A stretch of DNA of 46,874 bases, taken from the IMG/VR virus record IMGVR_UViG_3300035181_001974. One strand, 5' to 3'. Made by a program: the position numbers and the translations under genes. This DNA comes from a virus. This document shows positions 2,400-19,489 of the stretch, one piece after another (position 1 is the first letter of the stretch; the number at the start of each line of letters is the position of its first letter). A model generated the notes under the pieces. The model saw only the letters and a program-made list of their open reading frames with translations. It had not been told where the DNA came from and made no database searches.

Positions 2400-2602
2400 T
2401 TGAATGTCCTGTCAGGTGGATGTTCGCTGCAGCAACACGAGCCAAATGCCATGACAGTCTCACCGGCCTCGAGTGCCTCAAACTCTCGTGGGTCCCAGAC
2501 TAGATCGTAGATCCGACTGTGGAACTCACCGTTCGATATGTGGCCTTTCTCCCATGTTTCGAGGGTGTGACGGACTTTCTCAGCCAGTTCTTCGTAGTTC
2601 AT
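2348..2602 (-). CDS. hypothetical protein (84 aa)
   Basis: ORF in the co-directional operon, with 4-nt overlaps to its neighbours. No recognisable motif. Confidence 0.35.
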   Translation of the reverse strand: MNYEELAEKVRHTLETWEKGHISNGEFHSRIYDLVWDPREFEALEAGETVMAFGSCCCSEHPPDRTFKCEITIQPHGYTIKRCE

Positions 2603-3516
2603 AGCGACTCGATCAATTTTCTATAGGGCTCATAACCCGCGGGAAGTTTCCATGCCTCTACGTTGGGAATTGCCGGCGTAGCGTTGAAGACATCATCAGC
2701 AATTGCAGAGGAAGGCAACACCTGTTCTGCGATGCCGACTGGCCTGGAGACTACTGGCACATTGAGCAGGCCACACTCGATCAATGACTGCGGGCCTCCC
2801 TCGTGACGTGCGGTGACCGGGTAAAGGTCAAGCGTCTGGTAGAGTTCATTGACCGTCTCGTGCGGGGGCCGTTCCAGGTAAGTGTACGGGACGCCCGCCT
2901 CTTCTAGACGTCCAATCAGGTACTGACGTCGCCAACCTGCCAGGACCACGTGTACCTTATCGTCGCCGATGATGCCTCGTTGGCGATGCTTCCGGATGAT
3001 GAAATCTGCGAGTAGATCAGGGCCCTTTTCGAGCTTTGGGCTCTTCAGGTCCTTACCTTCTGTGTCACGTTGGAATGAACCGATGACGTAGGCATCTGTC
3101 GGAATCCCGTACTTCTGCCGCAGCAATCCCTTGTCCAACGTCGGCAGCCAGATCTTCTGGTTGGCCCAGTACTTGATGAGATGGATAGGCTTTTCAGTCA
3201 AGGGTCTAATGAACGAGTGCGTCCGTTCGTTGTAAACGTGATAGGCTGTGGTCACCAGGTCGCGTTGCCTGAAATCATCGAGTTCCTTGAACCCAAATTT
3301 CTCTGGTGTGATGTGATGAACTGTGGTGATCACCTTTTTGTAACGCAACAATCCCGCGTTCGATAGACCTTCCCAACACCAGTCGGCCAACAACCAAACA
3401 ACGTGAGCGTCCTTGGGATGATAGACGCTGATGTCGGCATTGTCTTCGTTCCATTCCTTGACGAAGCGGTCGACGATCCAGTCTTCTTTGGGAGGCAGCA
3501 CGTAAACCTTGTTCAT
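2599..3516 (-). CDS. putative GT-B fold glycosyltransferase
   Basis: C-terminal HEGGPQSLIECGLLNVPVVS resembles the GT1/GT4 E-x7-E region. Start/stop-coupled to its neighbours. Confidence 0.4.
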   Translation of the reverse strand: MNKVYVLPPKEDWIVDRFVKEWNEDNADISVYHPKDAHVVWLLADWCWEGLSNAGLLRYKKVITTVHHITPEKFGFKELDDFRQRDLVTTAYHVYNERTHSFIRPLTEKPIHLIKYWANQKIWLPTLDKGLLRQKYGIPTDAYVIGSFQRDTEGKDLKSPKLEKGPDLLADFIIRKHRQRGIIGDDKVHVVLAGWRRQYLIGRLEEAGVPYTYLERPPHETVNELYQTLDLYPVTARHEGGPQSLIECGLLNVPVVSRPVGIAEQVLPSSAIADDVFNATPAIPNVEAWKLPAGYEPYRKLIESL

Positions 3517-4445
3517 GCGAGTACCGATTCGAACAGTTCAATGTAGCGCCGCGTGACATTCTTGATGTCGATGTCGGCGATGCTGGTATAGTCGAGATCG
3601 CGACGGTCTGGCAGGTCTTCGACCTGCCTCACATCGATCATGGGTGGATTATCGTAGTCCTCAAGCGTGTAGTCGTACGGCTGCTCCTGTAGGACGTGGC
3701 CATAAGAGCCGATGAGTTCCTTGGTTCCACCCACGGATGCGCATGCCACGGGAGTTCCTTGTGACAGAGCTTCTACGACAACGTTGGGGCAATGGTCAGC
3801 CCACGCTAGATGCAGCATCCATGAGGCTGCAGCATACACCTGCATGTAGACATCGGGACCAACAGGACCAGTGTAGAAGACGTGTGGGTCTGCCACACGC
3901 ACGTCAGGGTCCTTACCCATAATGATCAGGGCGCTGTTGGGCCGCTTCTCGCGGAGGTGCATGTAGAGTTCAACGTTTGACTTGAGGCGCTTCTGTGGGT
4001 GCCAATTCGAGCTGCAGACGTAGATGCGCTCATAATCATGCACCAATTTGCTCAGCGCCGGAATGGTCAACTCCTTGAGAGGCACCGTGTCGATCCCGTT
4101 GCGGATGACGGTGTGCCGGGTGACGCCTCCCCACCACTTCTCAACGAAGTTGCGATCAAATTCCGACTGAAAGACGACGGCGTCGGCGGCGCCGTACAAC
4201 GCCTTGATGTTCGAGTTCTTGGTGTGAAACTCTTCGGGTTTGAACCAGACGCCGTCTAGGCGCTGGACGACTTTCTTGGCAAGGGGTGCCCCACTGCGTT
4301 CGATGAAGACCAGTGAAACGTCGGCCTCGGCTACCGAGAGCGTCACCTCGTGTCCGCTCTCGAACAACCCACGGGCTAGGCGGCCTGCGAAGGTGTTGGG
4401 GCCGGACAAAGAGTTGAAATTGACACCGTCGAAGTGCACCTTCAT
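3513..4445 (-). CDS. glycosyltransferase family 4 (GT-B)
   Basis: NVVVEALSQGTPVACASVGGTKELI resembles the GT4 EGFGLVLLEAMACGLPVIA donor-binding motif. Confidence 0.65.
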   Translation of the reverse strand: MKVHFDGVNFNSLSGPNTFAGRLARGLFESGHEVTLSVAEADVSLVFIERSGAPLAKKVVQRLDGVWFKPEEFHTKNSNIKALYGAADAVVFQSEFDRNFVEKWWGGVTRHTVIRNGIDTVPLKELTIPALSKLVHDYERIYVCSSNWHPQKRLKSNVELYMHLREKRPNSALIIMGKDPDVRVADPHVFYTGPVGPDVYMQVYAAASWMLHLAWADHCPNVVVEALSQGTPVACASVGGTKELIGSYGHVLQEQPYDYTLEDYDNPPMIDVRQVEDLPDRRDLDYTSIADIDIKNVTRRYIELFESVLA

Positions 4446-4825
4446 GATCGACGCTTGATCTCCTGAATGATCGGCAACGAAAAGTCGGTCCCATGGAGCA
4501 TCATGCGCAACAATGCCAGCTCCTTGGTCTCGATGTTCTCCAGCCTGGCACGCTGCGAGAAGATGTTGGGATCGAGCTCATAGCGATTGTTGATGAGGAT
4601 GCTATCGTAGTACTGCTGCGCCACGTAGTTCATCGACTCATTGGTGATCTCGACCTGCGCGGCGGTGAAGACCTCGACGAGCGCGTCAAAGATGTCACCA
4701 TAGATCTGAGTGCAGACGTAGGGATTGAGGCCCTCCTCTGAACCCTCAGGTTTGATGTACTTCTTCAACTTCTCACCCAACAGCTGGGACACGGCCTCGT
4801 GGATTCCGACCTTCTTGTCACTCAT
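4442..4825 (-). CDS. hypothetical protein (127 aa)
   Basis: ORF coupled (4-nt overlaps) within the glycan operon. No motif recognised. Confidence 0.4.
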   Translation of the reverse strand: MSDKKVGIHEAVSQLLGEKLKKYIKPEGSEEGLNPYVCTQIYGDIFDALVEVFTAAQVEITNESMNYVAQQYYDSILINNRYELDPNIFSQRARLENIETKELALLRMMLHGTDFSLPIIQEIKRRS

Positions 4826-5757
4826 GGGTTCTCCGTGCGTAGGCTAGTGGCCTGCATGAATCTAACATACTCCTCGATGCATGTCTTCCAATCGCCCGTT
4901 GCAGCAGGATTCGGTCGGAAAACGCCTTTTTCGAGGATGAAGCGCAGCTCATTCCAGTCCTGGTAGACGTACTCATCTCCACAAGCGAACTCGACCGCGC
5001 CGCCGCCGTCCTTGTGCACGTAGGTTGGCAAGCCACAGGCAATCGATTCCAAGATGTGGTTGGGACCAGGATCGAACCTGGATGCTGACACATAGACATC
5101 ATGGCGACCCAGTTCTTCACCGAGTTTCTTGCCGTACAGCGGCCTCACAACCGTGGTGTGCTTAAAGTCGCACTTGTGTCGACCGATGTACGTGAAGGCG
5201 AACTTCTTGGGTTGAGCTCCGACGAAGCGATCAATTTCTTCGTAGATGTCGGCACCCTTCAACGGGTTGTCTGACCAGTGATGGGCCGCGATGTGCACCT
5301 TGCCGTCGTTGAACTTGTTCGCAGGGGCAAAGATGGTTGAATCGACCCCATTTTTGATGACGGTGTTGTTGGAGCAATTCCATCCTTTTTTCTCGAAATA
5401 TTTCTGCAGCCATCTCGAGACAAACACCGTGCCGTCGACGTACTCCGAGAGCTTCAAAAGGTATTCGTCGACCCCCGTAGTCCCCTTCCGGGCATCATTT
5501 TCGTTGACGCGGAGGACGATGCGAATGTCGCGGTGACCCGTCATGTGTAGCTTGTACATGACCGCCTGCTCAGCTGAGATGCCACCAGCCTCGCTGTCAA
5601 GGCCCGCGAGCAGGATGATATCGGGTGCCACCTGACGCTCATCAGCGGGAACCACTTCATGGCCCAATTCAGGAATGTGTTCGTAGGCAGCATTAATGAA
5701 GTGTGCGCCACCTCCCCAAGGTCCCCTAATCGGTCGACGATTGATGTAGACTCGCAC
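4822..5757 (-). CDS. GT-B fold glycosyltransferase (GT4-like)
   Basis: HILESIACGLPTYVHKDGGGAVEF is a GT4-like C-terminal motif. Confidence 0.55.
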   Translation of the reverse strand: MRVYINRRPIRGPWGGGAHFINAAYEHIPELGHEVVPADERQVAPDIILLAGLDSEAGGISAEQAVMYKLHMTGHRDIRIVLRVNENDARKGTTGVDEYLLKLSEYVDGTVFVSRWLQKYFEKKGWNCSNNTVIKNGVDSTIFAPANKFNDGKVHIAAHHWSDNPLKGADIYEEIDRFVGAQPKKFAFTYIGRHKCDFKHTTVVRPLYGKKLGEELGRHDVYVSASRFDPGPNHILESIACGLPTYVHKDGGGAVEFACGDEYVYQDWNELRFILEKGVFRPNPAATGDWKTCIEEYVRFMQATSLRTENP

Positions 5758-6421
5758 GTGCTTCTCGCTCTTTCTGTCGACGAAGCTTTTGTGCTTCGCT
5801 ACGACGACGCTTGGTTTCAGGATTCTGAGACGTTTGTCTCATGTTGTTCTTTGCTTGTTCGCTGATCGTACGACCACGTAATTTTTCACTACGTTTACGT
5901 CGAGACTCTTCCGAATGTTTAACCCCCATGCCGGACTCAACACACCTTTTCGACCCCATTGTGGGTTGTTCTATCCGGAGAGGCGGTCACCGATGGTACG
6001 TCGAATTTTCTCGACAGATTCTGGAGTGTGGTTGTGACCATAGAACGGGTTTGCTACGCCCGACAAAGTGCCACCATCACCGCCCAGGGTCATGTTATAC
6101 CCAAAGCCGCCAACAAGTGCACAGGTGTTATATTCAGCAATGAACTTAACTTCGAGTCGTTTTGCTTCTTCGAACGTTTCGACCCGTGCCAACACCTCCC
6201 GCCGCCACACGTCATCTGACGTACCGTGTTTACACTTTTTAGTGTCTGTGAACGTGATGTGTTTCGTTGTTTCACTTCGTGACCGCATCACACCTGCTGC
6301 ATGAATCAGATTGATAACGCCAGAGTAACTGATGTCAACACCCGCGCCCTAAAGGCGTTCCAGGATGCCAACTGACGACAGCTTTTCATTGACGTACATG
6401 TCAACAATTGACTGACACACT
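5726..6421 (-). pseudogene. decayed GIY-YIG-type homing endonuclease with NUMOD3 repeats (in-frame amber stop at 6351..6349 plus a frameshift near 5960)
   Basis: Track ORFs 6349..6675 (its 3' part) and 5971..6291 are in the same frame and separated only by TAG. The read-through gives ...ISYSGVINLIHAAGVMRS...EYNTCALVGGFGYNMTLGGDGG..NPFYGHNHTPESVEKIRRTIG. ORF 5726..5959, in another frame, carries two more G-x-x-[HI]S-x-E-x-x-K NUMOD3-like units (GRTISEQAKNNMRQ, NPETKRRRSEAQKLRRQ). Confidence 0.4.
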
Positions 6422-7249
6422 TCAGGTGGATGCTTTGTGTGATGACGTCTGTAGACCTTCTTCCCACGGTTTTCCTTGGGCAACGTAACCTCTTCCGCGC
6501 AAGAAGTCAGCTTCTGCTTTTTGAAACTTTGCGTCATCAGTCTGATAAACAGCACCGCCGCGCTCATCAATGGTATAGTGATACATGACGCGTGGAACAA
6601 ATCCACGCCTCTTTGCATTATGCAACACCGGGAGATAAAGGCTTTGGTCGCCGGCCCTACGAACAAGATCACCATTCATATTGGTAAAGTTTTCGTAAGG
6701 TACGCCATTCAGAAGGCTCTTACGAAAGGTCTTTAGGTGGCTGGAGACCCACGGGTATTTGTACGGGTCAGCATCTCCGGGCATCGGAGCTGAGATGTTC
6801 TTGTCAGTAAAACCCCAACGATGTGCCGTCCACAGGGCGTCTGCGCCGCTCTGGTTGTAGAGAACGTTTAGGTACGTCAGAGCATCGAGCTCTGTCAACC
6901 AATCGTCCGCGTCAATGCGACAGACGATGTCGCTGTCCTCACACTCCTGCAGACCTCTGAGGACGTTGGCAACCTCCCACTTCTTCTCAGCGTTCCAGAT
7001 TGTAGTGACACGGCCAGAATTGAGGTGATCGAAGCGTTGCAGCCAGTCTTTTGCGTTGGCTACATGCACAGAATCGGACACATCATCGATCAGGACGATC
7101 TTCCAGTTGTCATATGACTGCCCATAGATGCTGTAAAGCATCCTGGGCAATGTTTCCGATGCATTGAACATCGGTGCCACAAAACAAAACCTATTTTGGT
7201 GTTCTGGCATGATGGTACACGTACCCTTTTGCAGATTCACGATGACCAT
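6422..7249 (-). CDS. glycosyltransferase family 2 (alternative start at ATG 7210)
   Basis: FCFVAPMFNASETL...YGQSYDNWKIVLIDDVSDS is a classic GT2 N-terminal segment. DADDW resembles the DxD motif. Confidence 0.7.
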   Translation of the reverse strand: MVIVNLQKGTCTIMPEHQNRFCFVAPMFNASETLPRMLYSIYGQSYDNWKIVLIDDVSDSVHVANAKDWLQRFDHLNSGRVTTIWNAEKKWEVANVLRGLQECEDSDIVCRIDADDWLTELDALTYLNVLYNQSGADALWTAHRWGFTDKNISAPMPGDADPYKYPWVSSHLKTFRKSLLNGVPYENFTNMNGDLVRRAGDQSLYLPVLHNAKRRGFVPRVMYHYTIDERGGAVYQTDDAKFQKAEADFLRGRGYVAQGKPWEEGLQTSSHKAST

Positions 7250-7324
7250 TCAAAACTTGCAAGATCATTGATCTGCTGACGCCCATTTTCATGGCAGCCT
7301 CTTTGATCGAAGAAAGGCTTATTG

Positions 7325-8050
7325 TCACCAGTCGTCACGGGAAACACCGCCCTTTGTCAGGAGGACCTGACCGTAGTCGACCTGATCGTCAGTGAACCGA
7401 CGATCGTCGAAAAACATCCTGCGATCCATGATGATCAGTTCCTTCGACGGGTCATCAACCTCGTCGATCAGGTCGCGGCACTGGATGCCTGGGTCGTTCT
7501 TCGACGGCAGATGATAGTCGTCAAAGAGAAGGCATTTGTTCCAGCGATCCTTGGTCAGCTCCCAGTCCAGCCGCGTGCCGGCATACGAGTGGTCGCCATC
7601 GATGTAGACGAAGTCGAAGGAACCCTCGAGCTTCGGAATGAGGTCTCCCGAGGTTCCCTTCATGAACTGCACGTGCTTGAACCAATCATGAGGAAAGACC
7701 TGGCTTAGCATCTTGATGTAGTCCTCATTGAGGGCAGGATCGATGGTGATGATCTTGCCTTCGACGCCTGCATCTGAGAAGGCCCGAGCCGCACAGAAGG
7801 TTCCGTAGCCGCGGCCAAATCCGATCTCGAGCATTGACGTGATGCCCAATGATCGGATGAGATGATAGATCAGGATGCCACGCTCATAGTTTGAACGGTA
7901 GAACGCGCCGTACTTCTTGTAGTTGGGGTCATCCAGACCACGCTGACGTTCAGCAGTGAATCGACCGATGTAGTCGAAGTCGCCCATCACCACTGACCCC
8001 GGATCGACTCCGAGTGATTCGAGCTTTTGCTGGATCGTGATCTTCTTCAT
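7325..8050 (-). CDS. class I SAM-dependent O-methyltransferase (TylF/CmcI-like)
   Basis: MLEIGFGRGYGTFCAARA (motif I), KIITIDPA, FVYIDGDHSYAG. Confidence 0.75.
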   Translation of the reverse strand: MKKITIQQKLESLGVDPGSVVMGDFDYIGRFTAERQRGLDDPNYKKYGAFYRSNYERGILIYHLIRSLGITSMLEIGFGRGYGTFCAARAFSDAGVEGKIITIDPALNEDYIKMLSQVFPHDWFKHVQFMKGTSGDLIPKLEGSFDFVYIDGDHSYAGTRLDWELTKDRWNKCLLFDDYHLPSKNDPGIQCRDLIDEVDDPSKELIIMDRRMFFDDRRFTDDQVDYGQVLLTKGGVSRDDW

Positions 8051-8132
8051 CTTTGGTTTCCTCGGAATCTCAATCTTGGTGGGTCAACACTGGCAGTCAT
8101 CAACATCATAGCAGCAACTGCCACGACTGTCT

Positions 8133-8474
8133 TTAGGCGCTGCCATTCGACCACTCGCCTTCCAACTTGCGATACTCGATCGGGTGACCGAGCTCCTGGG
8201 CATGAGCGATGCCGTACTCCATGCCCTTACTCATGCCGAGGTCAGTGTACACGACAGTCTTATCTGAGGCCTCACGCCATGCAAAGCCAGCGGCGATGCC
8301 GTGCATTCGCTCGTCAGTGACGTCATCGCGGAGGACGCCTTCCTGAGTGTACAGTGCGTGGCTCGCGTATGGACTCTCACCTCTCGCTAGACAGTCACGC
8401 ATGCAGGCCCTGACGTACCGCATGTTCTTGTCAATGTCGCCAGCATAGGGCGACTCGATGATGACGCGGATCAT
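8133..8474 (-). CDS. DUF4406 / nucleoside 2-deoxyribosyltransferase-like fold protein (start placed at MIRVII, not the track's 8645)
   Basis: RVIIESPYAGD...CLARGESPYASH...VVYTDLGMSKGMEYGIAHAQELGHPI matches the DUF4406 pattern (KLYLAGPMRG...RARGHEVFSP...GWENSRGA..E). The truncated start avoids overlap with 8492..10399. Confidence 0.4.
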   Translation of the reverse strand: MIRVIIESPYAGDIDKNMRYVRACMRDCLARGESPYASHALYTQEGVLRDDVTDERMHGIAAGFAWREASDKTVVYTDLGMSKGMEYGIAHAQELGHPIEYRKLEGEWSNGSA

Positions 8475-8491
8475 CTTGGGAAAAGGCTTTC

Positions 8492-10399
8492 TCACTTCAA
8501 CATCACCTTGGGTTGCGTACGGGCGACAGAGATGTGAGGAATCTTGACCTTGCCGTCCCATTTGCGGTGCCAGATCCAGCCACCGAGCTTGTCCTTGAGC
8601 TCCTTTGCACGAGCTTCGATCATCTCGTCGGTGACCTGTGACCACGGGACATCGAACATCATGTTATTCTCTGCAACGTCGGAAGTGTCCCTGCCCCACA
8701 GGCCGTTCCAGTGGTTCTGCCAGTAGTCACGGTAGAGGCGGATCTTACGAGGAAGATCGTACCATGAGTAGTGGAAGACGCAAGGCAGTCGGTTCACTGC
8801 AGCGTTGAACCACAACTGATACTGGAGGAGGGCGTTGTTGTCGCCCATGATCGCAAATTGTCTGACGCGTTCCACGTCAGGTGTGTAGAACGACACGTGA
8901 GGCAGACGCTCGCCAGTCTCTTTGTCGATCATGTCGCAACCATCAGTGCCAGGCAGCGCCATCGGGTGCCCGTCTGCATCAGTGGTTCGTAGTTCACGGG
9001 GAATCCCGTGAGTGATGTTGGGCTTGTTACGCGACAGCCGCCACTTCCACGGCTGAATGTCAACGCGAACCTTTTCGGGTCCGCCCCAATACTCGATGAC
9101 GGGCAGTGACAACACGTCTGCCTCGCGGGGAATCTTACGGCACAAGTCGATCACCTTTGCTGCGTCGTCCTCGTGAACGATCTCGTCGGAGTCCATCTGC
9201 CAGCAGTACTCACTGGTGCACATTGCTCGGGCTTCGGCCTTTTGCATGCCGTCAAAGACCGCGTGACGTGGATGAGACCAATCTCGCGGAACCTGCTTGA
9301 CTTTGAGGATCGGATCAGTCGAAGCCAAGAACTGCAACGCTTGCCAGGTACCGTCAGTGCTACCACCGTCGACTACGCAAATCTCGTCGCAGAACTCTGC
9401 CATCGACAAGATAGCCTCCTTCCACGGGTACTTTTGGGTGACGCAGTTGTAGACGGTCATGTAGCCCGAGATGGTGGGCTTGTAGTCCATCATGTGCTTG
9501 ACACCATTCCAAAACATGGCGCGGGCTGCAAACAGATAATCCTTGATGCTTTCGAGATCATCGGTGTTGAACCATTCCTCGTCCTTGTGTTGGACGTGGT
9601 CGTTGAGGTGTAGCTTGCAACCCAATAGCTTGGCTTCAATGACCATGCGAGGGCAGGTGTCTGCCCCATTCGGCAGGTAGACAAAGCCTTCTGCCTTCGA
9701 GAGTTGCTCGAGTAGCTCGTGGTAGGGAACGTTCCAGACCACGTGGTAGTCCTTGCCGTTGTCCATGCACCACTTCTCAGCAGCACCGGCACCCTTGACC
9801 CAAGAGTTCGAACCCAGGACAATCCACCCCTTGCGTTCCGCAGGTGCGTTGGCACGCAGTTTCTCGATGAGGCCCAAGGTTTCAGGTGAAAAGACGCTAG
9901 AGAGGACGACGTTGTCCTTTTCTGCCAAGAATGGGAATACTGCGTGGTAGCGTTCCTTCTGCTTCTCTGACATCCACCAGAGCCCCAAGGAACCATAGTA
10001 GAACGCGGAGACCAGCTTGCCGTTGTTCTGGTTGTGACAGTCACAAGGAGTCTTCGTGGCGTCAAAGTGCTTCTCTGGAGAACGGAAGCGACAGTACTTG
10101 TAGTCGTACTCGAGGACCGTGTACTTCAGGTTGGCAACGATGCTGGGGATCAACTGGGGATTAATGTCAGCGAAGTTGCCGAAGATCCAGAACTTGTCAG
10201 CTCCCTGTTCAAGGGTCTGCAGCGTCAGGTCACGAGTGTGCAACTTCTGCACCTTGACGGGACTGGAATCGATGAGTGCCTGCGATGTGAGTTCCGCACC
10301 TCCGACGTAGTCTTCGACGAACATGTCTGAGACAAAGACGACCTTTGCGTCATCTGCGATGCGAGCGACTGGGGATTTGAAGATCTGTTCGTCGAACAC
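8492..10399 (-). CDS. large bifunctional glycosyltransferase (N-terminal GT-B-like region plus C-terminal GT2 domain)
   Basis: C-terminal MTVYNCVTQKYPWKEAILSMAEFCDEICVVDGGSTDGT is a GT2 signature. N-terminal EGFVYLPNGADTCPRMVIEAKLLGCK is GT-B-like. Confidence 0.6.
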   Translation of the reverse strand: MFDEQIFKSPVARIADDAKVVFVSDMFVEDYVGGAELTSQALIDSSPVKVQKLHTRDLTLQTLEQGADKFWIFGNFADINPQLIPSIVANLKYTVLEYDYKYCRFRSPEKHFDATKTPCDCHNQNNGKLVSAFYYGSLGLWWMSEKQKERYHAVFPFLAEKDNVVLSSVFSPETLGLIEKLRANAPAERKGWIVLGSNSWVKGAGAAEKWCMDNGKDYHVVWNVPYHELLEQLSKAEGFVYLPNGADTCPRMVIEAKLLGCKLHLNDHVQHKDEEWFNTDDLESIKDYLFAARAMFWNGVKHMMDYKPTISGYMTVYNCVTQKYPWKEAILSMAEFCDEICVVDGGSTDGTWQALQFLASTDPILKVKQVPRDWSHPRHAVFDGMQKAEARAMCTSEYCWQMDSDEIVHEDDAAKVIDLCRKIPREADVLSLPVIEYWGGPEKVRVDIQPWKWRLSRNKPNITHGIPRELRTTDADGHPMALPGTDGCDMIDKETGERLPHVSFYTPDVERVRQFAIMGDNNALLQYQLWFNAAVNRLPCVFHYSWYDLPRKIRLYRDYWQNHWNGLWGRDTSDVAENNMMFDVPWSQVTDEMIEARAKELKDKLGGWIWHRKWDGKVKIPHISVARTQPKVMLK

Positions 10400-10497: not shown

Positions 10498-10640
10498 CTG
10501 CTCCTTAGCTCTTAATCGAACTGTGGACTGCTCTTAAATTTCAACATCTAGTTTAGATCTGCTTAAGAACTCTTAATCGAACTGTGGACTGCTCTTAAAT
10601 TTAACGTCTAGCTTAAGACTGCTTAATAGCTCTTAATCTT
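10498..10640. repeat. iteron-like array: five CTGCT(C)TTAA motifs at 30-31 bp phasing inside two 61-bp tandem direct repeats (10509-10569, 10570-10630) plus a partial third
   Basis: Read directly. ctcttaatcgaactgtggactgctcttaaattt occurs at 10509-10541 and 10570-10602. The CTGCT(C)TTAA motifs start at 10498, 10528, 10559, 10589 and 10619. The region is AT-rich and lies between divergent gene blocks. Confidence 0.8.
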
Positions 10641-10693: not shown

Positions 10694-11230
10694 ATGCCCA
10701 CCAAAAAGCCAGGAAGTGCACGAGGATCTGCAGCTCGTTTGATTGGAACAGACCTAGACACGACCCGAGTCCTTGCAGAGATTCAACAGAAGGTGAACTC
10801 CTCTCCGGCACTCAACGGCGGGTTCGACACCCTTCTGTACAAGGTTGACAAGATCGAAGAGTCGCAGGGCAAAATCGTCTCGACTGTCGACAAGATCCAC
10901 GCGGCGATCTATGAACCTGACACGGGCCTCTTCTCCAGGATCAACACCGTGCAAGCCACAGCGTCCAAAGAAAATGGCGAACTTGAGAAGCAGTTGATCG
11001 AGCTAAACACCTGGAAGGCACAGACCGAGAAGTCAGCCCAGGAAGACAAAACGTCAGATGAAGCTCTGGTCAAGAAAGTCGAAGAGCAGCAGAAAGTCAT
11101 CGAGCAATTGACACAGTGGAAGGCCACAGTTTCAAAGGTCGGTGCATGGATCGGTATGGGATTCGGCGGTGGCGCTGTCACTTTGCTTTTCAAGATCCTG
11201 TATGATGTATTGACGACACACTGGAAGTGA
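10694..11230 (+). CDS. coiled-coil protein with a C-terminal transmembrane segment
   Basis: GAAGGA Shine-Dalgarno 8 nt upstream. Heptad-rich EKQLIELNTWKAQTEK..., then a hydrophobic VGAWIGMGFGGGAVTLLFKILY. Confidence 0.55.
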   Translation: MPTKKPGSARGSAARLIGTDLDTTRVLAEIQQKVNSSPALNGGFDTLLYKVDKIEESQGKIVSTVDKIHAAIYEPDTGLFSRINTVQATASKENGELEKQLIELNTWKAQTEKSAQEDKTSDEALVKKVEEQQKVIEQLTQWKATVSKVGAWIGMGFGGGAVTLLFKILYDVLTTHWK

Positions 11231-11233
11231 GCG

Positions 11234-12484
11234 GTGTACTATGGTCCCGTGAACTCTGGGACCCAAGTCTACCTCCAGGACGACGTTAGAGCGGCATTGC
11301 ACCGCCTCGTTGGACGTCTGCGGCTACTAACGCAGAAAGTTCAGGATGATGTTCTAGTCTCTAGGGATGATCGTAGCCTTATCCATACCCGGTTCCAGAT
11401 GTTGTTCAACCTGCGTTTGGCTGATCCACTCGAGGCCAGGCTACTAGAAATCATCATCGGCCATGCGGTAGCGGCTGAGAAGATGGGACCCGGTGCCTTC
11501 GACATGACTCTCGAGAGGCTGCTAGAAATCATCGAACTGTTCTTGAAGGGTATTACGCCACTTGATTTTCAAATAAATCAGAATGTCATCTCGAGGCCGG
11601 CGACCGCAGACGATATTCGAAGGTGTGTCATTGATCGTGTTAAGAAGGTCGACAAGGTCGCCGGCGACATGTTGACAGATGCGTTGGAACTTGCGGGTTT
11701 CGGCGGGCGTATCATCGTAGAGAAGACGCATGCATTGATGCCGTCTGTCGAACTATCGCGTGGATATTCGTTTGACACGGTGGCTGCCTGGCAGCTGACA
11801 GCTCGTCTCGAGCAACCCAGGGCTCTCGTTATCGATGGTTACATCGAACAGGTCTCAGAGATTCATCACCTCCTCGAGGCGGCCAATGAGGCCAAAGAAC
11901 CCATCATCATGTTCGTCAGAGGCCTGTCACAGGAGGTACTTCACACTCTGAAGGTCAACTTCGACAGAGGTTCTTTGAAGGTCGTTCCAATCATCGTCAA
12001 GTTCGACCTCGAGGGAATTAACTCTGTCAACGATCTAGCGATCGTCACGGGCTGTGACCTCATTTCCAGCAATAAGGGTGACCTCATCTCTGCCATCAAG
12101 TTCGAGTCAGCACCACGGATCGAGGCTGCCCTCGTCTATCCCAACAAGGTGGTGTTGCAGCACTCAGCCACTCGAGCTCGTGTTGCAGAACACGTGGCAT
12201 TTCTTCGTGATAAACGCAGCAAGTCGAACGTGATCGAAGACGTTGGCAAGCTCTATGACAAACGAATCCGCTCTCTATCACCGAGTCACGTGGTGATGCG
12301 CCTGCCAGACAACAAAGACTTTGTCAGAGTCTCACAGTCGATTGACGTGGCGCTGAGAACCATCAAATCATTGGTCGATCATGGTGTGACAGCCGAAATG
12401 CCGACGGCCGCCAGGGTGGCGGCCGCGGTGCATGCGCAGAAGTGCTACGAGACCTTGGCCTCGCTAGGTGCGCTGCTTGTCTGA
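11234..12484 (+). CDS. divergent truncated chaperonin (GroEL/Cpn60-like; intermediate and apical domains present, GDGTTT nucleotide-binding motif and C-terminal equatorial domain absent)
   Basis: LSRGY aligns with GroEL [55 protein letters not shown] aligns with GroEL [62 protein letters not shown] aligns with [26 protein letters not shown] aligns with AVAAGMNPMDL. The position matching GDGTTTATVLA reads [11 protein letters not shown]. Confidence 0.65.
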   Translation: [416 protein letters not shown]

Positions 12485-13537
12485 CTTTTTGATTTCAGCG
12501 AGCACACGCTCCACATCGTAGAGGTTCAACCCTTCTTTGCGAATACTGTAGCCCATCTTCTTGCCCAGGTCGCGGATGGCAGCAATGACCCTAGCCGCAT
12601 CGTCAGCTTTGATCTTGTTGGGCAAACGGGCCGCCAATCGACCAGCGAGGTCCTTGACTTGATCGTCGTTTAGGCCCTCACCACCGGCCTTGGGTGCCTC
12701 AGCGGGCTTCTCGTTGCTCTTGGCGGCAGGAGTTTCGCCTGAGGTCGTCGGTGATGCGGTCTTTGCTCCGCTGGGAGCCTCGCCTGACTTGCTCTCGCCA
12801 GATTTTTTCTCTCCACTGACGTTGGCACCCTTTTTCAAATCGTCTTTCAGTTCTGGTGCAATGTCAGCGGTCTTGGGACCGGCCTCGATCGTCTGCTGCG
12901 CCTGCGTCAAGGCCGCGATGGGCGACGTCATGATGTCGTTGACGAGACCTTGAACGTCTGCGTAAGGCAGTTTCTTGAAGGCTCCAAAGAGGCCACCAGG
13001 CGTGAATGCCTTTATCAGCATGCCTTGAGCAGCTTGAATTTTGTCATTTGCTCCCGGCGTGCCAGCGGCAACGTTGTCGCCGCCAAGGCGGTCCTTGAGG
13101 CTGTCGCCTTCTGCCTTTTCGATCTTCAAATTCTTGACAATCTTTGGCAGCAGCTGAAACCCACGTTCCAGTGCGCTCGCAAGAGCCATCGCCTTGACAA
13201 TCGGATTTTCGCCGCCTGACAGCTTCGACTTCATCTTCTGCCAGGCTCGACCGATGCTTCCACCGCCCGTGTATTTGTTGATGTCGTTGGTTGCTGCGTC
13301 GACTGCGGCCTTCAAGGACTTGGCGTTGGGCAGCTTTGACACGAGATTTTCGAGCTTGTCGAGGACGGCGGATGCCTTGTTGAGCTCCTCTTCGTCCATC
13401 GCCTCAACGATCAAGCGGGCTACGCGGTGCTCTTCGAGCAATTCAGCATTGATCCGTGAGACTTTTTCCTGAAGGCGCTGCAACCTGCGAGCCTCGTACT
13501 TCTCTTTGAGCGTAATGGCCATTTTATTGTTCCTCAC
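12464..13537 (-). CDS. hypothetical Ala/Lys-rich coiled-coil protein (antisense to all neighbouring genes)
   Basis: 1074-nt ORF with a strong AAGGTGAGGAA Shine-Dalgarno upstream of the ATG at 13537. The plus strand here has only three short unrelated ORFs. Confidence 0.6.
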   Translation of the reverse strand: MRNNKMAITLKEKYEARRLQRLQEKVSRINAELLEEHRVARLIVEAMDEEELNKASAVLDKLENLVSKLPNAKSLKAAVDAATNDINKYTGGGSIGRAWQKMKSKLSGGENPIVKAMALASALERGFQLLPKIVKNLKIEKAEGDSLKDRLGGDNVAAGTPGANDKIQAAQGMLIKAFTPGGLFGAFKKLPYADVQGLVNDIMTSPIAALTQAQQTIEAGPKTADIAPELKDDLKKGANVSGEKKSGESKSGEAPSGAKTASPTTSGETPAAKSNEKPAEAPKAGGEGLNDDQVKDLAGRLAARLPNKIKADDAARVIAAIRDLGKKMGYSIRKEGLNLYDVERVLAEIKKSDKQRT

Positions 13538-13586
13538 CTTTTACTAGGTAAGTAGGTGTGTTACCTTCATCATAGGATCCACATTC

Positions 13587-13841
13587 ATGCAACCCAAAGA
13601 CAAGATCGGCAAGGCGGCCTGGAATCAGATGCAGGCCATGAGGGACTCAGTGGTCAAGGACGTCGCCGATGCAATCCGTGACGGCAAGGTTGAGGCAGCG
13701 ACAGCTCAGCAGCTGTTGAACCTCATTTCTGCCTCAATCGAAGCTGGTTATCACAAAGGTTTCAGCGTCTTTGACAAGGAAGTTGATGCAGCGTTGGGGG
13801 AAGCCGCAAAGGATCACCGCCCAACTACGAAAAAAAAGTGA
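13587..13841 (+). CDS. hypothetical protein (84 aa)
   Basis: ORF; lysine-rich C-terminus. Confidence 0.4.
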   Translation: MQPKDKIGKAAWNQMQAMRDSVVKDVADAIRDGKVEAATAQQLLNLISASIEAGYHKGFSVFDKEVDAALGEAAKDHRPTTKKK

Positions 13842-13865
13842 GCTGGTGGTCCAAATTCATCAAGG

Positions 13866-14354
13866 ATGTCAGGTTTAGGGTCGGGTGACATGCCATCAGG
13901 TCTGAAACACCTCATCCGTTGCCGGTGCGTGATGCCGCAGTTCAAGAACTTGCCGGAGCCGCCGCCGCATCAGTTCGTCGTCTTTTCGATCATGGGCGAT
14001 GACGACAAGTTGATCGTGAAATATGCGCAGTGCAATAACTGCGGACGCATTCACAAGGTCATTGACGTCTGTAAGTCAGAGGTCACTGGCCGTGAGGCCT
14101 TCAGCTCTGTCATGACGATCGATGATGTCAAGGCATCACTGCCAGCAAACCTAGCCAACATCCTGGACGTCAATGGCGCCGACCTGCCAACCTGGGAGGC
14201 AGCACAATTTATCTATGAGAACAAGCGCTGGGGCGAGTTTGTGGTGTTGGCCACCGACGTTGAAGAAGGCACGCGCCAAGGCAAATACGTTCAGATCTTG
14301 GGAGAGAATCTTTTCAAGGTCAATGCATTCTCACGCGAGGAGTACGCAAGGTGA
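13866..14354 (+). CDS. hypothetical Cys-rich protein (possible zinc ribbon: RCRC...CNNCGRIHKVIDVC)
   Basis: ORF with clustered Cys pairs. Confidence 0.45.
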   Translation: MSGLGSGDMPSGLKHLIRCRCVMPQFKNLPEPPPHQFVVFSIMGDDDKLIVKYAQCNNCGRIHKVIDVCKSEVTGREAFSSVMTIDDVKASLPANLANILDVNGADLPTWEAAQFIYENKRWGEFVVLATDVEEGTRQGKYVQILGENLFKVNAFSREEYAR

Positions 14355-14602
14355 ATCAGCTGTACGGAAAGTCTGAGTCGGACCGCCGTGCGGAAGAAAA
14401 CCAAGTCGCTCGTCAGATCGTCAGCGAGATTGGTAACTTCGGCGTCAATGAGCGTCAGCGAGTGCTCATCATGTATCTTCTTGCTATGGAGCTAGAGAAC
14501 GTGGAGAACCTCAAGGCCTTCACGAGTATCATCAAAGAACGTTGCGGAAAGGACGTCTTCCTTTCTGATGGAGAGGAACCAGATGGGTCGATCGATCGGT
14601 GA
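14351..14602 (+). CDS. hypothetical protein (83 aa)
   Basis: ORF; ATGA overlap with the upstream gene. Confidence 0.4.
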   Translation: MNQLYGKSESDRRAEENQVARQIVSEIGNFGVNERQRVLIMYLLAMELENVENLKAFTSIIKERCGKDVFLSDGEEPDGSIDR

Positions 14603-15206
14603 GAGAAAGAACGTGCCCACCGCAGTCAGCACTGCACCCACGGCGTCGCCGGAAGAGATGCTGTTGCAATCGCTCGCATTCCAGCAGCAATCGTCAGCAA
14701 GAATCGTGGTGCTGCACGGTGACGTGACAGAGCACACCATCTCTGCTGTCATCGTCCAACTGTTGGACCTGGCGAACCAGAATCACAAGCCCATTCACCT
14801 GGTCATCTCCACGTACGGCGGTTCCGTCGATGAGATGTTTAGCCTCTACGATACTATCAAGTTCCTGCCGTGCCCGGTCCACACCATCGCCTTGGGCAAG
14901 GTAATGTCCGCAGGCGTGCTCCTGCTCGCGAGCGGTGTCAAAGGCAAGCGCATGATTGGCCGCTCCGCGCGTATCATGATTCATCCCATTTCAGGTGGAG
15001 CCATCGGCACCGTCTTTGACGTGATGAATGAGGCCAAGGAACACGCTCGACTGCAGGAGTTGATGATGGACGCCTTGGTCAAGGAGACGAAGATCTCCAA
15101 GAAGAAGGTGCAGGAGATCATGAAGGTCGGGCACGACTGTTATTTGACCCCAGACGAGGCCATCAAGCTCGGAATCGTTGACAAAATTGTCGGTGACAGC
15201 GACTGA
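14583..15206 (+). CDS. ClpP-family serine protease (S14; possible prohead protease)
   Basis: GKVMSAGVLLLASG (catalytic Ser context), ARIMIHPISGG (catalytic His, cf. ClpP RVMIHQPLGG), LTPDEAIKLGIVDKIV. Start moved to the second Met, which has a GGAGAGGAA Shine-Dalgarno at 6-nt spacing. Confidence 0.75.
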   Translation: MGRSIGERKNVPTAVSTAPTASPEEMLLQSLAFQQQSSARIVVLHGDVTEHTISAVIVQLLDLANQNHKPIHLVISTYGGSVDEMFSLYDTIKFLPCPVHTIALGKVMSAGVLLLASGVKGKRMIGRSARIMIHPISGGAIGTVFDVMNEAKEHARLQELMMDALVKETKISKKKVQEIMKVGHDCYLTPDEAIKLGIVDKIVGDSD

Positions 15207-16989: not shown

Positions 16990-17241
16990 ATGGATACCGA
17001 CAATCAGGTGCTTGCTAAGTGGAATGAGATCAAGGAAGTCATGTCGTCGATCGAGCTTGATGTGGCGAAGAACGCCCGCGGCACCGCAGCGGCCGGCGTG
17101 CGTGCCCGGAAGGGTCTGCGGACTCTGAAGATCAAGGCGACGGAGCTCGTCAAGCTGACGGTCGAACTCGACAAGGTCAAGAAGACTGAGAAGTCGGCAA
17201 AGGCCTCGAAGGCTCCCGGCAAGGCGCCCAAGAAGTCCTGA
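16990..17241 (+). CDS. histone H1-like nucleoid protein, Hc1 family
   Basis: VAKNARGTAAAGVRARKGLRTLKIKATELVK aligns with Chlamydia Hc1 KAEKGNKAAAQRVRTESIKLEKIAKVYRK. Lys/Ala-rich tail. Strong AGGAGG Shine-Dalgarno at 9 nt. Confidence 0.6.
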   Translation: MDTDNQVLAKWNEIKEVMSSIELDVAKNARGTAAAGVRARKGLRTLKIKATELVKLTVELDKVKKTEKSAKASKAPGKAPKKS

Positions 17242-17334: not shown

Positions 17335-17700
17335 ATGCCTTCACCTCGAGCAGTACTCGCCGACATCACTGACTTTAAGCTTGATCCAACGGTCGCACAC
17401 ACCACCATTCACGGGACTGGCCGTCTGGCTAAGCCCGCTGGTCATCAGCCTGTCGTCAAGGTCGAGGAACATAAGAAGCCGGAACCAAAGCCTGAACCGA
17501 AGAAGGTCGAAGCAGCAACGCCTTCGCCTCCACCACTGCCCGCCCCTGAACCGCCCAAGGCGGTCGAGGTAAAGGCGCCGGTTGAAGAGACAAAGGCGGC
17601 TGTTGTCGAAGAAAAGACCGTCGAGAAGGTCGCGGAACATGCCGAGACCGAAGAGACGGCCAAGAAGCGCGGTGGCAAGAAGGCTGCGGAAAAGGCCTAA
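17335..17700 (+). CDS. Pro/Glu/Lys-rich low-complexity basic protein
   Basis: AGGAGA Shine-Dalgarno at 5 nt. PEPKPEPKK repeats and a KKRGGKKAAEKA tail. Confidence 0.55.
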   Translation: MPSPRAVLADITDFKLDPTVAHTTIHGTGRLAKPAGHQPVVKVEEHKKPEPKPEPKKVEAATPSPPPLPAPEPPKAVEVKAPVEETKAAVVEEKTVEKVAEHAETEETAKKRGGKKAAEKA

Positions 17701-17975
17701 CGGCTGGCTCGGCGGATTTTCTCGTAGATTCCCTTTTCAATCTGACAAATCCTCATCCTTGTCAGGCCGTAGATCTTTCCGATCTCTTGCAATGTATGAG
17801 GACCTTCAGACGCTGCGATCATGACACAATTGTGACCATCAGGATATGAGATCCAGTGCGGACACCGCTTCCGTTGACAATCAATGTCGTGTCTTGAGAG
17901 TACTGAAAAACACGTGGCGCCTTCGACGATGGTTCCTTCTTGGACAACGTTGAGGCGCCTCTTTCCATTCTGCAT
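17697..17975 (-). CDS. sigma-70 region 4-like HTH regulator with an N-terminal Cys/His-rich module (92 aa; the track ORF's N-terminal 75 aa are rejected)
   Basis: HTLQEIGKIYGLTRMRICQIEKGIYEKIRR resembles sigma-70 region 4.2 (TLEEVG..GVTRERIRQIE..ALRKLR). AGGAG lies 10 nt upstream of the ATG at 17975. A longer start would overlap the PhoH 5' end. Confidence 0.55.
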   Translation of the reverse strand: MQNGKRRLNVVQEGTIVEGATCFSVLSRHDIDCQRKRCPHWISYPDGHNCVMIAASEGPHTLQEIGKIYGLTRMRICQIEKGIYEKIRRASR

Positions 17976-18008
17976 CACCACATATCTCCTCTTGTGGTAT
18001 ACAGTAAC

Positions 18009-18024
18009 GTGAGGAGGCATTCTT
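18009..18024. promoter_or_regulatory. perfect 16-bp palindrome ATTCTTGTACAAGAAT in the divergent promoter region
   Basis: Read directly. It is its own reverse complement and lies between the sigma-like regulator (minus) and PIN-PhoH (plus). Confidence 0.6.
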
Positions 18025-18103
18025 GTACAAGAATCCGATCCGATCGTACTACTGAGGTAGTGGTAACGGTGACGACAGGAAGAGAGCCCCGGAGATACAC
18101 ACT

Positions 18104-19489
18104 GTGAGTAAAAAGAAGACGTACGTTCTTGACACCAATGTCTTGCTGAGCGACCCCAACTCGATCTTTTCGTTTGAGGAAAATGACGTGGTCGTTCCAA
18201 TGGTGGTTCTCGAGGAACTCGATCACCACAAGAGCAGGCAGGACGAGGTCGGCAGGAATGCCCGTACCGTCAGTAGGTCGCTTGACGACATGCGAGTGAA
18301 AGGCAGCCTCTTTGAGGGAGTGACTCTCGCACAGGGTGGCAAGCTTCGTGTGGCAACGATCCAGGCTGACAAGGCTAAGGATCTGCCGTTCGAGCTGCGC
18401 TCGCCGAATCCTAAGGTCGACAACATGATCATCGCCTTCATGATGCAGTTCAAGAACAGCGATGAGGACGCGGCGATCCTGGTGTCGAAGGACATCAATG
18501 TTCGTCTGAAGTGCGATTCGTTGAACATTCGCTGCGAGGATTACCTCAAGATGCGGGTGACGAACGATCCCAAGCAGTTCTATCGCGGCGTCGACGTGAT
18601 CGAGGTCCCGGAGACCTTGGTCGACAAGTTCTACATGGAAGGTAACCTCGAGCTTCCTCTTGAAGTCAAGGCTGAACATCGCCTCTACCCGAACCAGATC
18701 GTCATCATCAAGAACACTCAGGACGGCAAGACGACAAAGTCTGCCATCACCAAGTGCATCTCTCATGATAAGCCACTAATCCCTGTTGCAAAGATCGACC
18801 AGGCGTTCAAGCTGAAGCCTCGTAACAAGGAGCAGAGCTTCTCGTTGGACCTACTGTTCGATGAGAACATCAAGTTGTTGACGTTGGTCGGACCCTCGGG
18901 CACCGGCAAGACGTTGCTGGCAATTGCGGCTGCCCTCGAACAGTTGAAGGGTGTCGGCGACCCGAGCAAGGCGAAGTATGAAAAGTTGATTGTCACCCGT
19001 CCAGTCCAACCGTTGGGCCATGACATCGGCTTCTTGCCGGGCACCCTAGAAGAAAAGATGGAACCGTGGATTGCTCCAATCCGCGATAATCTCAATTTCT
19101 TGATGGGTTCACGGAAGTCATCGAGGGGCCGCAAGGGGTCTGACCGGGAGGAGTACTATCTGTCGCTAATGCAGGACAGAGGCCTCATCGAGATCGAGGC
19201 GATCACGTTCATTCGTGGTCGATCAATTCCGAATGCCTTCATCATCATCGACGAGGCACAGAACCTGTCGATGCATGAGTTGAAAACCATCATCACTCGT
19301 GTTGGCGACGGGACCAAGATCGTCCTGACGGGCGACATTGAACAGATCGACAATGTTCATGTTGACGCGTATTCCAATGGCCTGACGTACGCCGTCGAGC
19401 GTTTCAAGGAGTACCCGATTGCAGGTCACGTGACGATGTTGAAGGGCGAGCGCAGCGAATTGGCGACACTCGCTTCCAAGATCCTCTGA
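18104..19489 (+). CDS. phoH: PIN-domain/PhoH-like ATPase fusion (YlaK-type)
   Basis: N-terminal YVLDTNVLL...VVLEELD (PIN acidic residues). Walker A LVGPSGTGKTLLA, Walker B IIIDEAQN. GTG start with GGAGAT Shine-Dalgarno. Confidence 0.8.
   Translation: MSKKKTYVLDTNVLLSDPNSIFSFEENDVVVPMVVLEELDHHKSRQDEVGRNARTVSRSLDDMRVKGSLFEGVTLAQGGKLRVATIQADKAKDLPFELRSPNPKVDNMIIAFMMQFKNSDEDAAILVSKDINVRLKCDSLNIRCEDYLKMRVTNDPKQFYRGVDVIEVPETLVDKFYMEGNLELPLEVKAEHRLYPNQIVIIKNTQDGKTTKSAITKCISHDKPLIPVAKIDQAFKLKPRNKEQSFSLDLLFDENIKLLTLVGPSGTGKTLLAIAAALEQLKGVGDPSKAKYEKLIVTRPVQPLGHDIGFLPGTLEEKMEPWIAPIRDNLNFLMGSRKSSRGRKGSDREEYYLSLMQDRGLIEIEAITFIRGRSIPNAFIIIDEAQNLSMHELKTIITRVGDGTKIVLTGDIEQIDNVHVDAYSNGLTYAVERFKEYPIAGHVTMLKGERSELATLASKIL

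Follow-up and report, generated by a model that had tools for sequence, protein, structure and literature searches.

The 46,874-nt DNA of the IMG/VR virus record IMGVR_UViG_3300035181_001974 (the whole of which is called the window here) encodes, at 11234..12484 on the plus strand, a 416-amino acid (aa) protein related to the chaperonin GroEL. Textbooks present chaperonins as machines driven by ATP, in which the equatorial domain, where the nucleotide binds, is the best conserved part. The protein described here is a GroEL homologue that keeps the intermediate and apical domains and part of the equatorial domain, and in which the residues of the ATP site are replaced or absent. A preliminary description, made from the DNA letters alone, had called it a truncated, probably ATPase-dead chaperonin and had grouped it with a nearby ClpP-like protease. 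The gene and the parts of its product are as follows:

11234..12484, + strand: proposed GroEL-derived pseudo-chaperonin, 416 aa; GTG start with a GGAAG-like Shine-Dalgarno sequence 7-11 nt upstream; alternative GTG at 11249
11234..11545, + strand: N-terminal equatorial remnant (helix A, hairpin, helices B, C and D), residues 1-104, from AlphaFold2 (AF2), hhalign and conservation
11486..11503, + strand: GPGAFD loop, residues 85-90, equivalent of GroEL G86-DGTTT-91
11546..11605, + strand: linker replacing GroEL helix E, residues 105-124; predicted local distance difference test score (pLDDT) about 69, entropy 3.3 bits, 0/20 columns conserved
11606..12385, + strand: intermediate and apical core (GroEL ~139-410), residues 125-384, from hidden Markov model (HMM) alignments and conservation
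12386..12481, + strand: C-terminal turn, 19-residue helix and terminal strand, residues 385-416, corresponding to GroEL 416-443 or 496-522

The reading frame is unbroken, and its 3' end runs 21 nt into a convergent 357-aa open reading frame (ORF; 12464..13537, minus strand), as the preliminary description had noted.

GroEL homology and the uniform shortness of the family

Sequence comparisons tie the intermediate and apical domains to GroEL. The protein matches the PHROGs family phrog_5725 'chaperonin groEL' (E=5.2e-15; query residues 140-354 against profile positions 156-388 of 540) and the NCBIfam GroEL models NF009487 (E=1.8e-16) and TIGR02348 (E=9.6e-15), with NCBIfam scores of 54-60 bits that lie below the curated cut-offs of 350-582 bits (582 for TIGR02348, 397 for NF000592). 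Searched as a single sequence against the PDB, it finds GroEL/Cpn60 chains at E=6e-11, with residues 136-392 corresponding to GroEL 152-417, and the family profile reaches PDB GroEL at E=6.6e-21. A global hhalign profile alignment to E. coli GroEL spans 404 columns with 98.9% probability, and the profile of a distant subfamily aligns to GroEL with 99.3%. Pfam PF00118 gave no match to the protein even at E<=1, and four of 71 family members match it at E<=0.01, which is a sensitivity problem and not missing homology. The PF00118 search that the preliminary description had proposed as a check would therefore have led us wrongly to dismiss a relationship that phrog_5725, NCBIfam and the PDB profile make clear.

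The AF2 model, built from a 71-sequence alignment (pLDDT 92.3, predicted template modelling score (pTM) 0.80), adopts the GroEL fold over the whole chain, as the preliminary description had anticipated. In Foldseek searches it retrieves GroEL/Hsp60 chains (E=9e-27, TMq 0.50-0.64) and viral chaperonin models (E=2e-23 for AR9; TMq up to 0.71 among the viral models). Equatorial, intermediate and apical domains are all present, the equatorial domain only in part, and the order of secondary-structure elements reproduces that of GroEL: residues 15-35 form helix A, strands 39-44 and 47-52 the stem-loop hairpin, 53-58 helix B, 65-84 helix C and, after a loop at 85-87, 88-104 helix D. The intermediate and apical domains then run to helix M (363-383), followed by a turn, a 19-residue helix (391-409) and a two-residue strand. 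The full-length alignment with GroEL given in the preliminary description thus stands by sequence for the intermediate and apical domains, and for the N-terminal ~105 residues only by fold and forced alignment. Together, these results identify the protein as a true GroEL homologue, a member of the Cpn60 superfamily by homology and fold, that fails the defining features of GroEL itself: the ATP site, a complete equatorial domain and the family score thresholds.

The short length is shared by all relatives found. In a large protein database, over 160 homologues share 39-58% identity with the protein, and nearly all of them measure 395-430 aa (median 408 aa) at a query coverage of 97-98%. A profile search of 1.84 billion representatives returned 655 clusters (50% identity) at E<=1e-30, of which the best 150 are all ~430 aa or shorter, and sixty IMG/VR loci at 25-53% identity carry GroEL-like ORFs of 370-480 aa, none of them full-length. 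Among the family members listed, length never exceeds 480 aa, and the GroEL-like ORFs of all 64 viral loci compared likewise fall within 370-480 aa. In the family alignment 33 columns are invariant and about 50 nearly so, with homologues down to about 25-30% identity. Because hundreds of homologues are equally short and none is full-length, the short architecture is an ancient, selected trait of the whole family and not the product of a frameshift.

This evidence bears directly on the possibility that the gene is a non-functional remnant of a phage GroEL, or that an assembly or frameshift artefact masks a full-length ATPase; the preliminary description had mentioned a remnant and a frameshift as alternatives. 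A decaying gene would indeed show loss of the ATP site and partial loss of a domain, and the JGI gene call for an identical protein, at 361 aa, is even shorter than the ORF. However, the existence of hundreds of independent, equally long homologues, the invariant columns, the unbroken frame and an AF2 model that is confident along the entire chain all speak against decay; the next gene is convergent, and no downstream ORF encodes the missing C-terminal segment. The JGI call itself appears to begin too late, as the motif HTRxQxxFN (residues 51-59), which lies upstream of the JGI start, is conserved in the family and supports the longer ORF. We therefore give next to no credence to a remnant or an artefact, both of which are at odds with a very large, uniformly short and strongly conserved family.

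The ATP site, the partial equatorial domain and the apical groove

The residues G85-P86-G87-A88-F89-D90 are placed opposite the GDGTTT phosphate-binding motif of GroEL by hhalign, by a MAFFT alignment with 57 viral homologues, by the secondary-structure register of the AF2 model and by the independent profile of the distant subfamily, which reads SGMSGL at this position. The preliminary description had placed the motif at ADPLEA, which is wrong, since these residues (63-68) form the start of helix C; its claim of a degenerate phosphate-binding loop and no canonical ATP site nevertheless holds, and is stronger at the corrected position. Residue frequencies were taken across 108 family members. 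At the P-loop, GroEL D87 is replaced by P in 99%, T89 by G or A, T90 by F in 95% and T91 by D or N. D398 is replaced by Y (62%) or V, D52 is not conserved, and the T30-P33 loop is replaced or deleted. The LGPKG loop of GroEL is lost, G414-416 are gapped, and N479, A480, I493 and D495 are without counterpart. The equatorial ATP-site residues, whose presence the preliminary description had proposed to check, are thus all replaced, gapped or in the missing segment. The register of the N-terminal ~105 residues is uncertain by a few residues, and the ATP-contacting side chains are present in no register. Judged from these sequences, a canonical ATP site cannot form. The family descends from a group I chaperonin and no longer has the Asp and Thr residues of the P-loop, the LGPKG loop, the catalytic D398, GGG414-416 or any of the N479-D495 region.

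The C-terminal equatorial segment is shorter by about 80-105 residues, and part of the nucleotide pocket has disappeared with them. The preliminary description was right that part of this segment is absent, and wrong that it is wholly missing (~130 aa), as a 19-residue helix and a strand are kept; its term 'truncated' fits the length of the protein, which may instead have arisen by internal deletion. The two alignments place the last helix differently: hhalign sets it on GroEL 416-443, and MAFFT chooses GroEL 496-522, where the last helix of the equatorial domain and the C-terminal strand lie, leaving a gap at ~414-495. Aligned separately with hhalign, the C-terminal 31 columns gave no match, and the profile of the long subfamily ends at GroEL 417. 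Three observations lean toward internal deletion over truncation. First, TM-scores are better for those Foldseek alignments in which the target is covered from end to end (0.71, 0.65 and 0.62 for viral models; 1sx3 and 4ki8 versus 1kp8 and 1ss8). Second, the terminal strands of the AF2 model (residues 12-13 and 414-415) occupy the same chain positions as the GroEL β-strands 4-8 and 518-522. Finally, distant members carry 30-60 extra residues exactly at the deletion junction.

These distant members form a subfamily (loci L046, L050, L051, L053, L056, L057, L059, L060 and L064) of 25-34% identity and 416-480 aa, in which the 30-60 extra residues lie between the helix-M equivalent and the last helix; they may represent intermediate stages of equatorial-domain reduction. 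In their loci a ClpP gene is absent in eight of nine cases and the helicase gene is often displaced.

In canonical GroEL the equatorial domain is the most conserved. In the phage family this pattern is reversed: columns conserved at >=90% number 48 of 176 in the apical domain versus 8 of 94 in the equatorial remnant, and the intermediate domain is also constrained. The hinge glycines G177 (=G192) and G384 (=G410) are conserved in 100% of sequences, as is the helix-I scaffold T261, N265 and R268 (GroEL numbering). The substrate-binding groove has been remodelled. Among the set Y199, Y203, F204, L234, L237, L259, V263 and V264, L237 and V264 are kept and L259 partly so, whereas L234 has become H (H211, 96%), V263 has become K or R (K240, 97%), Y199 has become P or Q and F204 is deleted. 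The changes L234->H and V263->K/R are themselves conserved in the family.

The same residues bear on a possible role in modulating the host chaperonin, in which the apical domain would act as a decoy that captures host GroES or a phage GroES/gp31 analogue, or the protein would co-assemble with host GroEL, redirecting or inhibiting host folding. The helix H/I scaffold of the GroES- and substrate-binding groove is kept, with L237, V264, E238, T261, N265 and R268 conserved; T4-type phages exploit host GroEL through a phage co-chaperonin (cited in PMC5649160), and Iyer et al. report phage Hsp10 and Hsp60 in different phage sets (PMC7824862). However, the key hydrophobic contacts are the ones altered at L234, V263, Y199 and F204. 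Mixed rings with host GroEL are unlikely because the equatorial contact surfaces are poorly conserved and inter-ring contact residues are absent or changed. Furthermore, no groES/Cpn10 match was found among the window ORFs scanned, and the chaperonin of phage EL, far closer to GroEL than the present family, fails to interact with GroES (PMC7185714). We consider a decoy or modulator role distinctly unlikely.

Neighbouring genes, genome context and the ClpP-family protease

The genes flanking the GroEL-like gene are listed below.

10694..11230, + strand: up178, 178 aa; conserved motif aLNGGFD..IH.aIYdPd.Glf at the N terminus, then a coiled coil of variable sequence, and at the C terminus a hydrophobic, Gly-rich segment (putative tail anchor)
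12464..13537, - strand: anti357, 357 aa; convergent, with a low-complexity A/G/K/E/P-rich middle
13587..13841, + strand: p84, small and predicted to be helical; only in closer relatives
13890..14354, + strand: p162, Cys-rich (CxC...CNNC plus a conserved His), with a β-rich C-terminal half; likely 154 aa from the ATG at 13890
14351..14602, + strand: p83, small; downstream of p162 in about 61/64 loci
14583..15206, + strand: ClpP-family serine protease, 207 aa; Ser109 (nt 14907), His134 (nt 14982), Asp185 (nt 15135)

Comparison of 64 loci recovered a single block order: a family 2 glycosyltransferase gene (GT2, minus strand), up178, the GroEL-like gene, anti357 (minus strand) and p84 in closer relatives only, p162, p83, a facultative ClpP gene, a helicase gene, Hc1, one further gene (x), a sigma70_r4 gene (minus strand) and a PIN-PhoH gene. 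The GroEL-like gene holds the same syntenic position in 64/64 loci, so that the search for a common neighbourhood proposed in the preliminary description found the gene in the same place in every locus. Since the whole block is a syntenic core that includes the helicase, Hc1, the sigma-like protein and PIN-PhoH, proximity alone says little about function. Downstream of the block, the genes for Hc1 (chlamydial-type histone H1-like, 16990..17241), the sigma70 region-4 protein (17697..18200, minus strand) and the PIN-PhoH fusion (18104..19489) form a trio in nearly all 64 loci.

The window has T4-like features, among them a T4-type large terminase (Terminase_6N) and a T4-type portal (Portal_T4), and also encodes the PIN-PhoH fusion, SbcCD and a primase. 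The family occurs only on viral or metagenomic contigs; an identical GroEL-like protein lies on contigs of up to 309 kb, and relatives lie on contigs of up to 369 kb. No copy was found in 185,579 GTDB representative genomes. Among deposited phages there is no near-identical DNA, p162 is also absent, and tblastn finds only distant full-length GroELs; a match labelled as a Staphylococcus 'phage' proved to be a canonical 538-aa GroEL and an Acinetobacter match proved to be a groES-groEL operon. Among cultured phages, the most similar TerL reaches only about 40% identity. The GroEL-like gene belongs to the vertically inherited core of a T4-like jumbo-phage clade that is large and uncultured.

The constant partners of the GroEL-like gene are up178 and p162. 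In the window the up178 stop codon (TGA, 11228-11230) is followed almost at once by the GroEL-like start at 11234, and in at least 41 loci a homologue of up178 was detected, each time abutting the GroEL-like gene on its upstream side. Searches of Pfam, PHROGs and PADLOC gave up178 no family match beyond coiled-coil noise. A 606-aa protein on a 4.4-kb ENA contig (P0112) fuses an up178 homologue to a GroEL-like protein. In the window the two ORFs share a frame, separated by the TGA and one codon; programmed readthrough from up178 into the GroEL-like gene was considered and rejected, as the in-frame arrangement occurs in only 10/41 loci.

The gene p162 follows the GroEL-like gene in 64/64 loci and is better conserved than it, at 57-77% identity in the alignment, with H15, C19, C21, H35, C56, C59 and H63 invariant (ORF numbering). 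It has 305 homologues and an AF2 model of pLDDT 90, with no sequence match in the PDB and no fold neighbour there (best Foldseek E=0.19). The product has an orphan fold that probably binds zinc. The convergent anti357 is lineage-specific, being found only in closer relatives at 352-476 aa. The preliminary description had set a membrane-anchored coiled-coil protein between the chaperonin and the protease; this gene, up178, in fact lies upstream, and the genes between are anti357, p84, p162 and p83. Its statement that the neighbours have no recognisable homologues is correct for annotated families, and does not extend to metagenomes, where all have hundreds of homologues.

Upstream of up178, the 295 bp that separate the divergent GT2 gene from the up178/GroEL-like operon contain a 61-bp tandem repeat (2.2 copies, 90% match, 10509..10638) with an exact 33-mer present twice. 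Copies of GCTCTTAA are frequent in it, four there and six in the window versus 0.86 expected. The repeat region may be an operator or promoter array; it is not conserved in relatives. Promoter and terminator scans of the block gave no excess over shuffled expectation, Rfam and tRNA scans found nothing, and PADLOC defence-system models returned only coiled-coil noise.

Other features of the window were seen in passing. A 10-kb glycan-synthesis cluster (511..10399, minus strand) encodes a Polysacc_synt_2 dehydratase/epimerase, three GT1-like and two GT2 proteins (one, 635 aa long, carries a sizeable additional region at its N terminus), and also Methyltransf_24 and DUF7768. Relatives have the cluster too, with Acb5 (PF26761) genes close by. 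Between 19499 and 34043 (14.5 kb), seven consecutive large ORFs (372, 831, 1344, 635, 238, 422 and 835 aa) have no Pfam match, and one of them has a marginal PHROG match to a family without an assigned function (E=9e-4). The portal gene (42225..46736, also at 1012..5523 of locus L067; 1503 aa) has its PF07230 match split by two Intein_splicing matches and an HNH_3 endonuclease, that is, one or more inteins within the portal. In L067 the portal gene is followed by a 284-aa gene and then by a Peptidase_S77 prohead protease gene.

The protease gene downstream of p83 encodes a real member of the ClpP family with an intact catalytic context, as the preliminary description had proposed. It matches Pfam CLP_protease at E=1.9e-40 (139 bits against a gathering score of 20.2), and its homologues start at MGR, which supports the 207-aa start. 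The triad GKVMS109AG, MIH134P and GHD185 aligns to the catalytic residues of ClpP 3q7h and is conserved in 42 homologues. Scores fall below the curated cut-offs of the cellular models (111 against 308.6 bits for TIGR00493; 134 against 249 bits for NF001368) and of the head-maturation protease model NF045542 (58.5 against 120 bits), and on sequence grounds we class the protein as a divergent ClpP paralogue. The preliminary description had cautioned that it need not be the prohead protease. It is not, because a Peptidase_S77 gene (T4 gp21-type) sits two genes after the portal on a contig with an identical portal; the ClpP gene itself lies about 27 kb from the portal, amid replication and transcription genes.

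The preliminary description had further combined the two genes into a candidate proteostasis module, and one may ask whether the GroEL-like protein and ClpP act jointly. GroEL rings and ClpP rings are both heptameric, and a 7-fold GroEL-like ring could feed or cap a 7-fold ClpP ring. The ClpP gene lies 2-4.5 kb downstream on the same strand in 46/62 informative loci, distant relatives without anti357 and p84 have contiguous, co-directional GroEL-like, p162, p83 and ClpP genes, the triad is intact across the ClpP family, and no ClpX/ClpA-type unfoldase was found among the window ORFs. However, ClpP is absent from 16/62 informative loci (about 26%) in which the GroEL-like gene is retained, among them a lineage that shows a 20-residue scar, and a convergent gene splits the transcription units in the window. 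The linkage is also unspecific, the region being collinear over >15 kb with replication and transcription genes, and an unchanged sequence pattern of the GroEL-like protein in phages without ClpP was observed in part. Because ClpP is missing from about 26% of related loci, the module is not obligatory and at most facultative, and we regard joint action as highly improbable. Instead, ClpP would be an active-looking accessory protease, presumably working with a host unfoldase and not required for the GroEL-like protein. Accessory ClpPs of patchy distribution have already been described in jumbo phages (PMC7824862).

The scar is seen at 11501..11632 of L004 (GCA_020049755.1, JAHZTO010000048.1) and in L019, where the last ~20 residues of ClpP, DRYLLPEEALELGIVDRIIG, are left between p83 and the helicase gene and the GroEL-like gene is intact.

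Proposed function and comparison with known systems

We propose, with a probability of about 0.5, that the protein is a GroEL-derived pseudo-chaperonin of T4-like jumbo phages that has lost its nucleotide pocket and acts in binding or assembly independently of ATP. One or a few specific partners would bind, without an ATP cycle, in the apical groove between helices H and I, which has been remodelled to be more polar and basic. The protein would be a holdase, an assembly factor or a scaffold acting on a phage protein, the T4-type major capsid protein being a plausible client, although this is a guess. The up178 protein probably works with it, and the C-terminal hydrophobic segment of up178 could tether the pair to a membrane.

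Several observations count against this proposal. First, the groove is less hydrophobic than that of GroEL, which argues against a general holdase. Second, a non-canonical nucleotide site could, strictly speaking, still exist. Third, the up178 partnership leans on evidence that may be read otherwise: the lone P0112 fusion could be a sequencing error at the stop codon, its topology would be odd should the hydrophobic segment really span the membrane as a helix, and the adjacency of up178 and p162 may reflect genome collinearity, the whole region being syntenic. Fourth, the fold search with p162 gave no functional clue. Finally, the equatorial domain gives most ring contacts (PMC7185714), so with half of it missing a ring may not be able to form.

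There is a more ambitious form of the proposal, which we hold to be unlikely. It posits an internally deleted chaperonin, with the nucleotide-binding half of the equatorial domain (GroEL ~414-495) excised and the ring-knitting elements (N-terminal strand, stem-loop hairpin, C-terminal helix and strand) kept, that would form a heptameric, nucleotide-free ring, membrane-tethered by up178. Throughout the jumbo-phage clade, this ring would be an obligatory platform on which assembly proceeds without ATP, for instance that of the T4-type capsid protein or the initiation of the prohead. If true, such a ring would be the first natural nucleotide-free group I chaperonin ring.

Full-text literature searches turned up no description of a short phage GroEL without an ATP site. 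The main viral chaperonin survey retained sequences only if they covered GroEL 8-514 and removed any that lacked key regions (PMC5649160). Because Pfam misses the family and the survey kept only full-length sequences, thousands of copies are filed as 'hypothetical protein' or mislabelled 'chaperonin GroEL'. A very large natural family has dropped the nucleotide-binding part of a chaperonin and kept the apical and intermediate domains and the hinges through deep jumbo-phage divergence, and it may reveal a phage-specific mechanism of assembly or host takeover.

Compared with GroEL/Cpn60, the phage proteins share about 20-26% identity over the intermediate and apical domains, the same three-domain fold and order of secondary-structure elements, and G192, G410, T261, N265 and R268. 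They differ in length (about 416 versus about 548 aa), in lacking helix E, most of the C-terminal equatorial segment, the GGM tail and an adjacent groES, and in having their conservation peak in the apical and not the equatorial domain.

The full-length phage chaperonins (EL gp146, OBP gp246 and AR9 gp228; phrog_5725) are likewise jumbo-phage GroEL homologues without a dedicated co-chaperonin. Unlike the present family, they are ATPases of 511-609 aa whose subunits assemble into one or two heptameric rings (PMC7185714, PMC9598537); the short family matches only positions 156-388 of the 540 in their profile, has no ATP site and belongs to another, T4-like and uncultured clade. All viral chaperonin matches in BFVD are full-length (511-609 aa), and EL gp146 is a full-length ATPase (PMC7185714), in keeping with the view of the preliminary description that the protein is unusual among phage chaperonins.

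The neighbouring protease shares with the accessory jumbo-phage and cellular ClpPs (S14) the CLP_protease domain and triad, and cellular ClpP models outscore the head-maturation protease models. It differs from cellular ClpP in scoring under the NCBIfam cut-offs (134 versus 249 bits), in 37 N-terminal residues that are not alignable to the axial loops and in having no phage unfoldase in the window.

Eukaryotes have chaperonin-derived pseudo-chaperonins in BBS6, BBS10 and BBS12. The CCT domain of Fab1, which mediates Vac14 binding (PMC2600653), and that of PIKfyve similarly represent a chaperonin-homologous domain that serves a specific protein-protein interaction and not ATP-driven folding. 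These Fab1 and BBS domains differ from the phage family in their group II origin and have no sequence relation to it beyond the superfamily, and that of Fab1 sits in a multidomain kinase.

A functional precedent for what the phage protein may do is provided by the GroEL minichaperones (apical residues ~191-345/376), chaperonin fragments without the ATPase and ring machinery. Isolated GroEL apical domains bind non-native proteins and suppress aggregation without ATP (PMC4973282; PMC2695268), and the phage family offers a natural test of the debated question of whether chaperonin apical domains are useful in vivo without ATP, a cage or GroES. The minichaperones were made in the laboratory and have the hydrophobic groove of native GroEL, whereas the phage protein is the product of a natural gene under selection, has an intermediate domain, hinges and half an equatorial domain in addition, and has a groove that is partly polar and basic.

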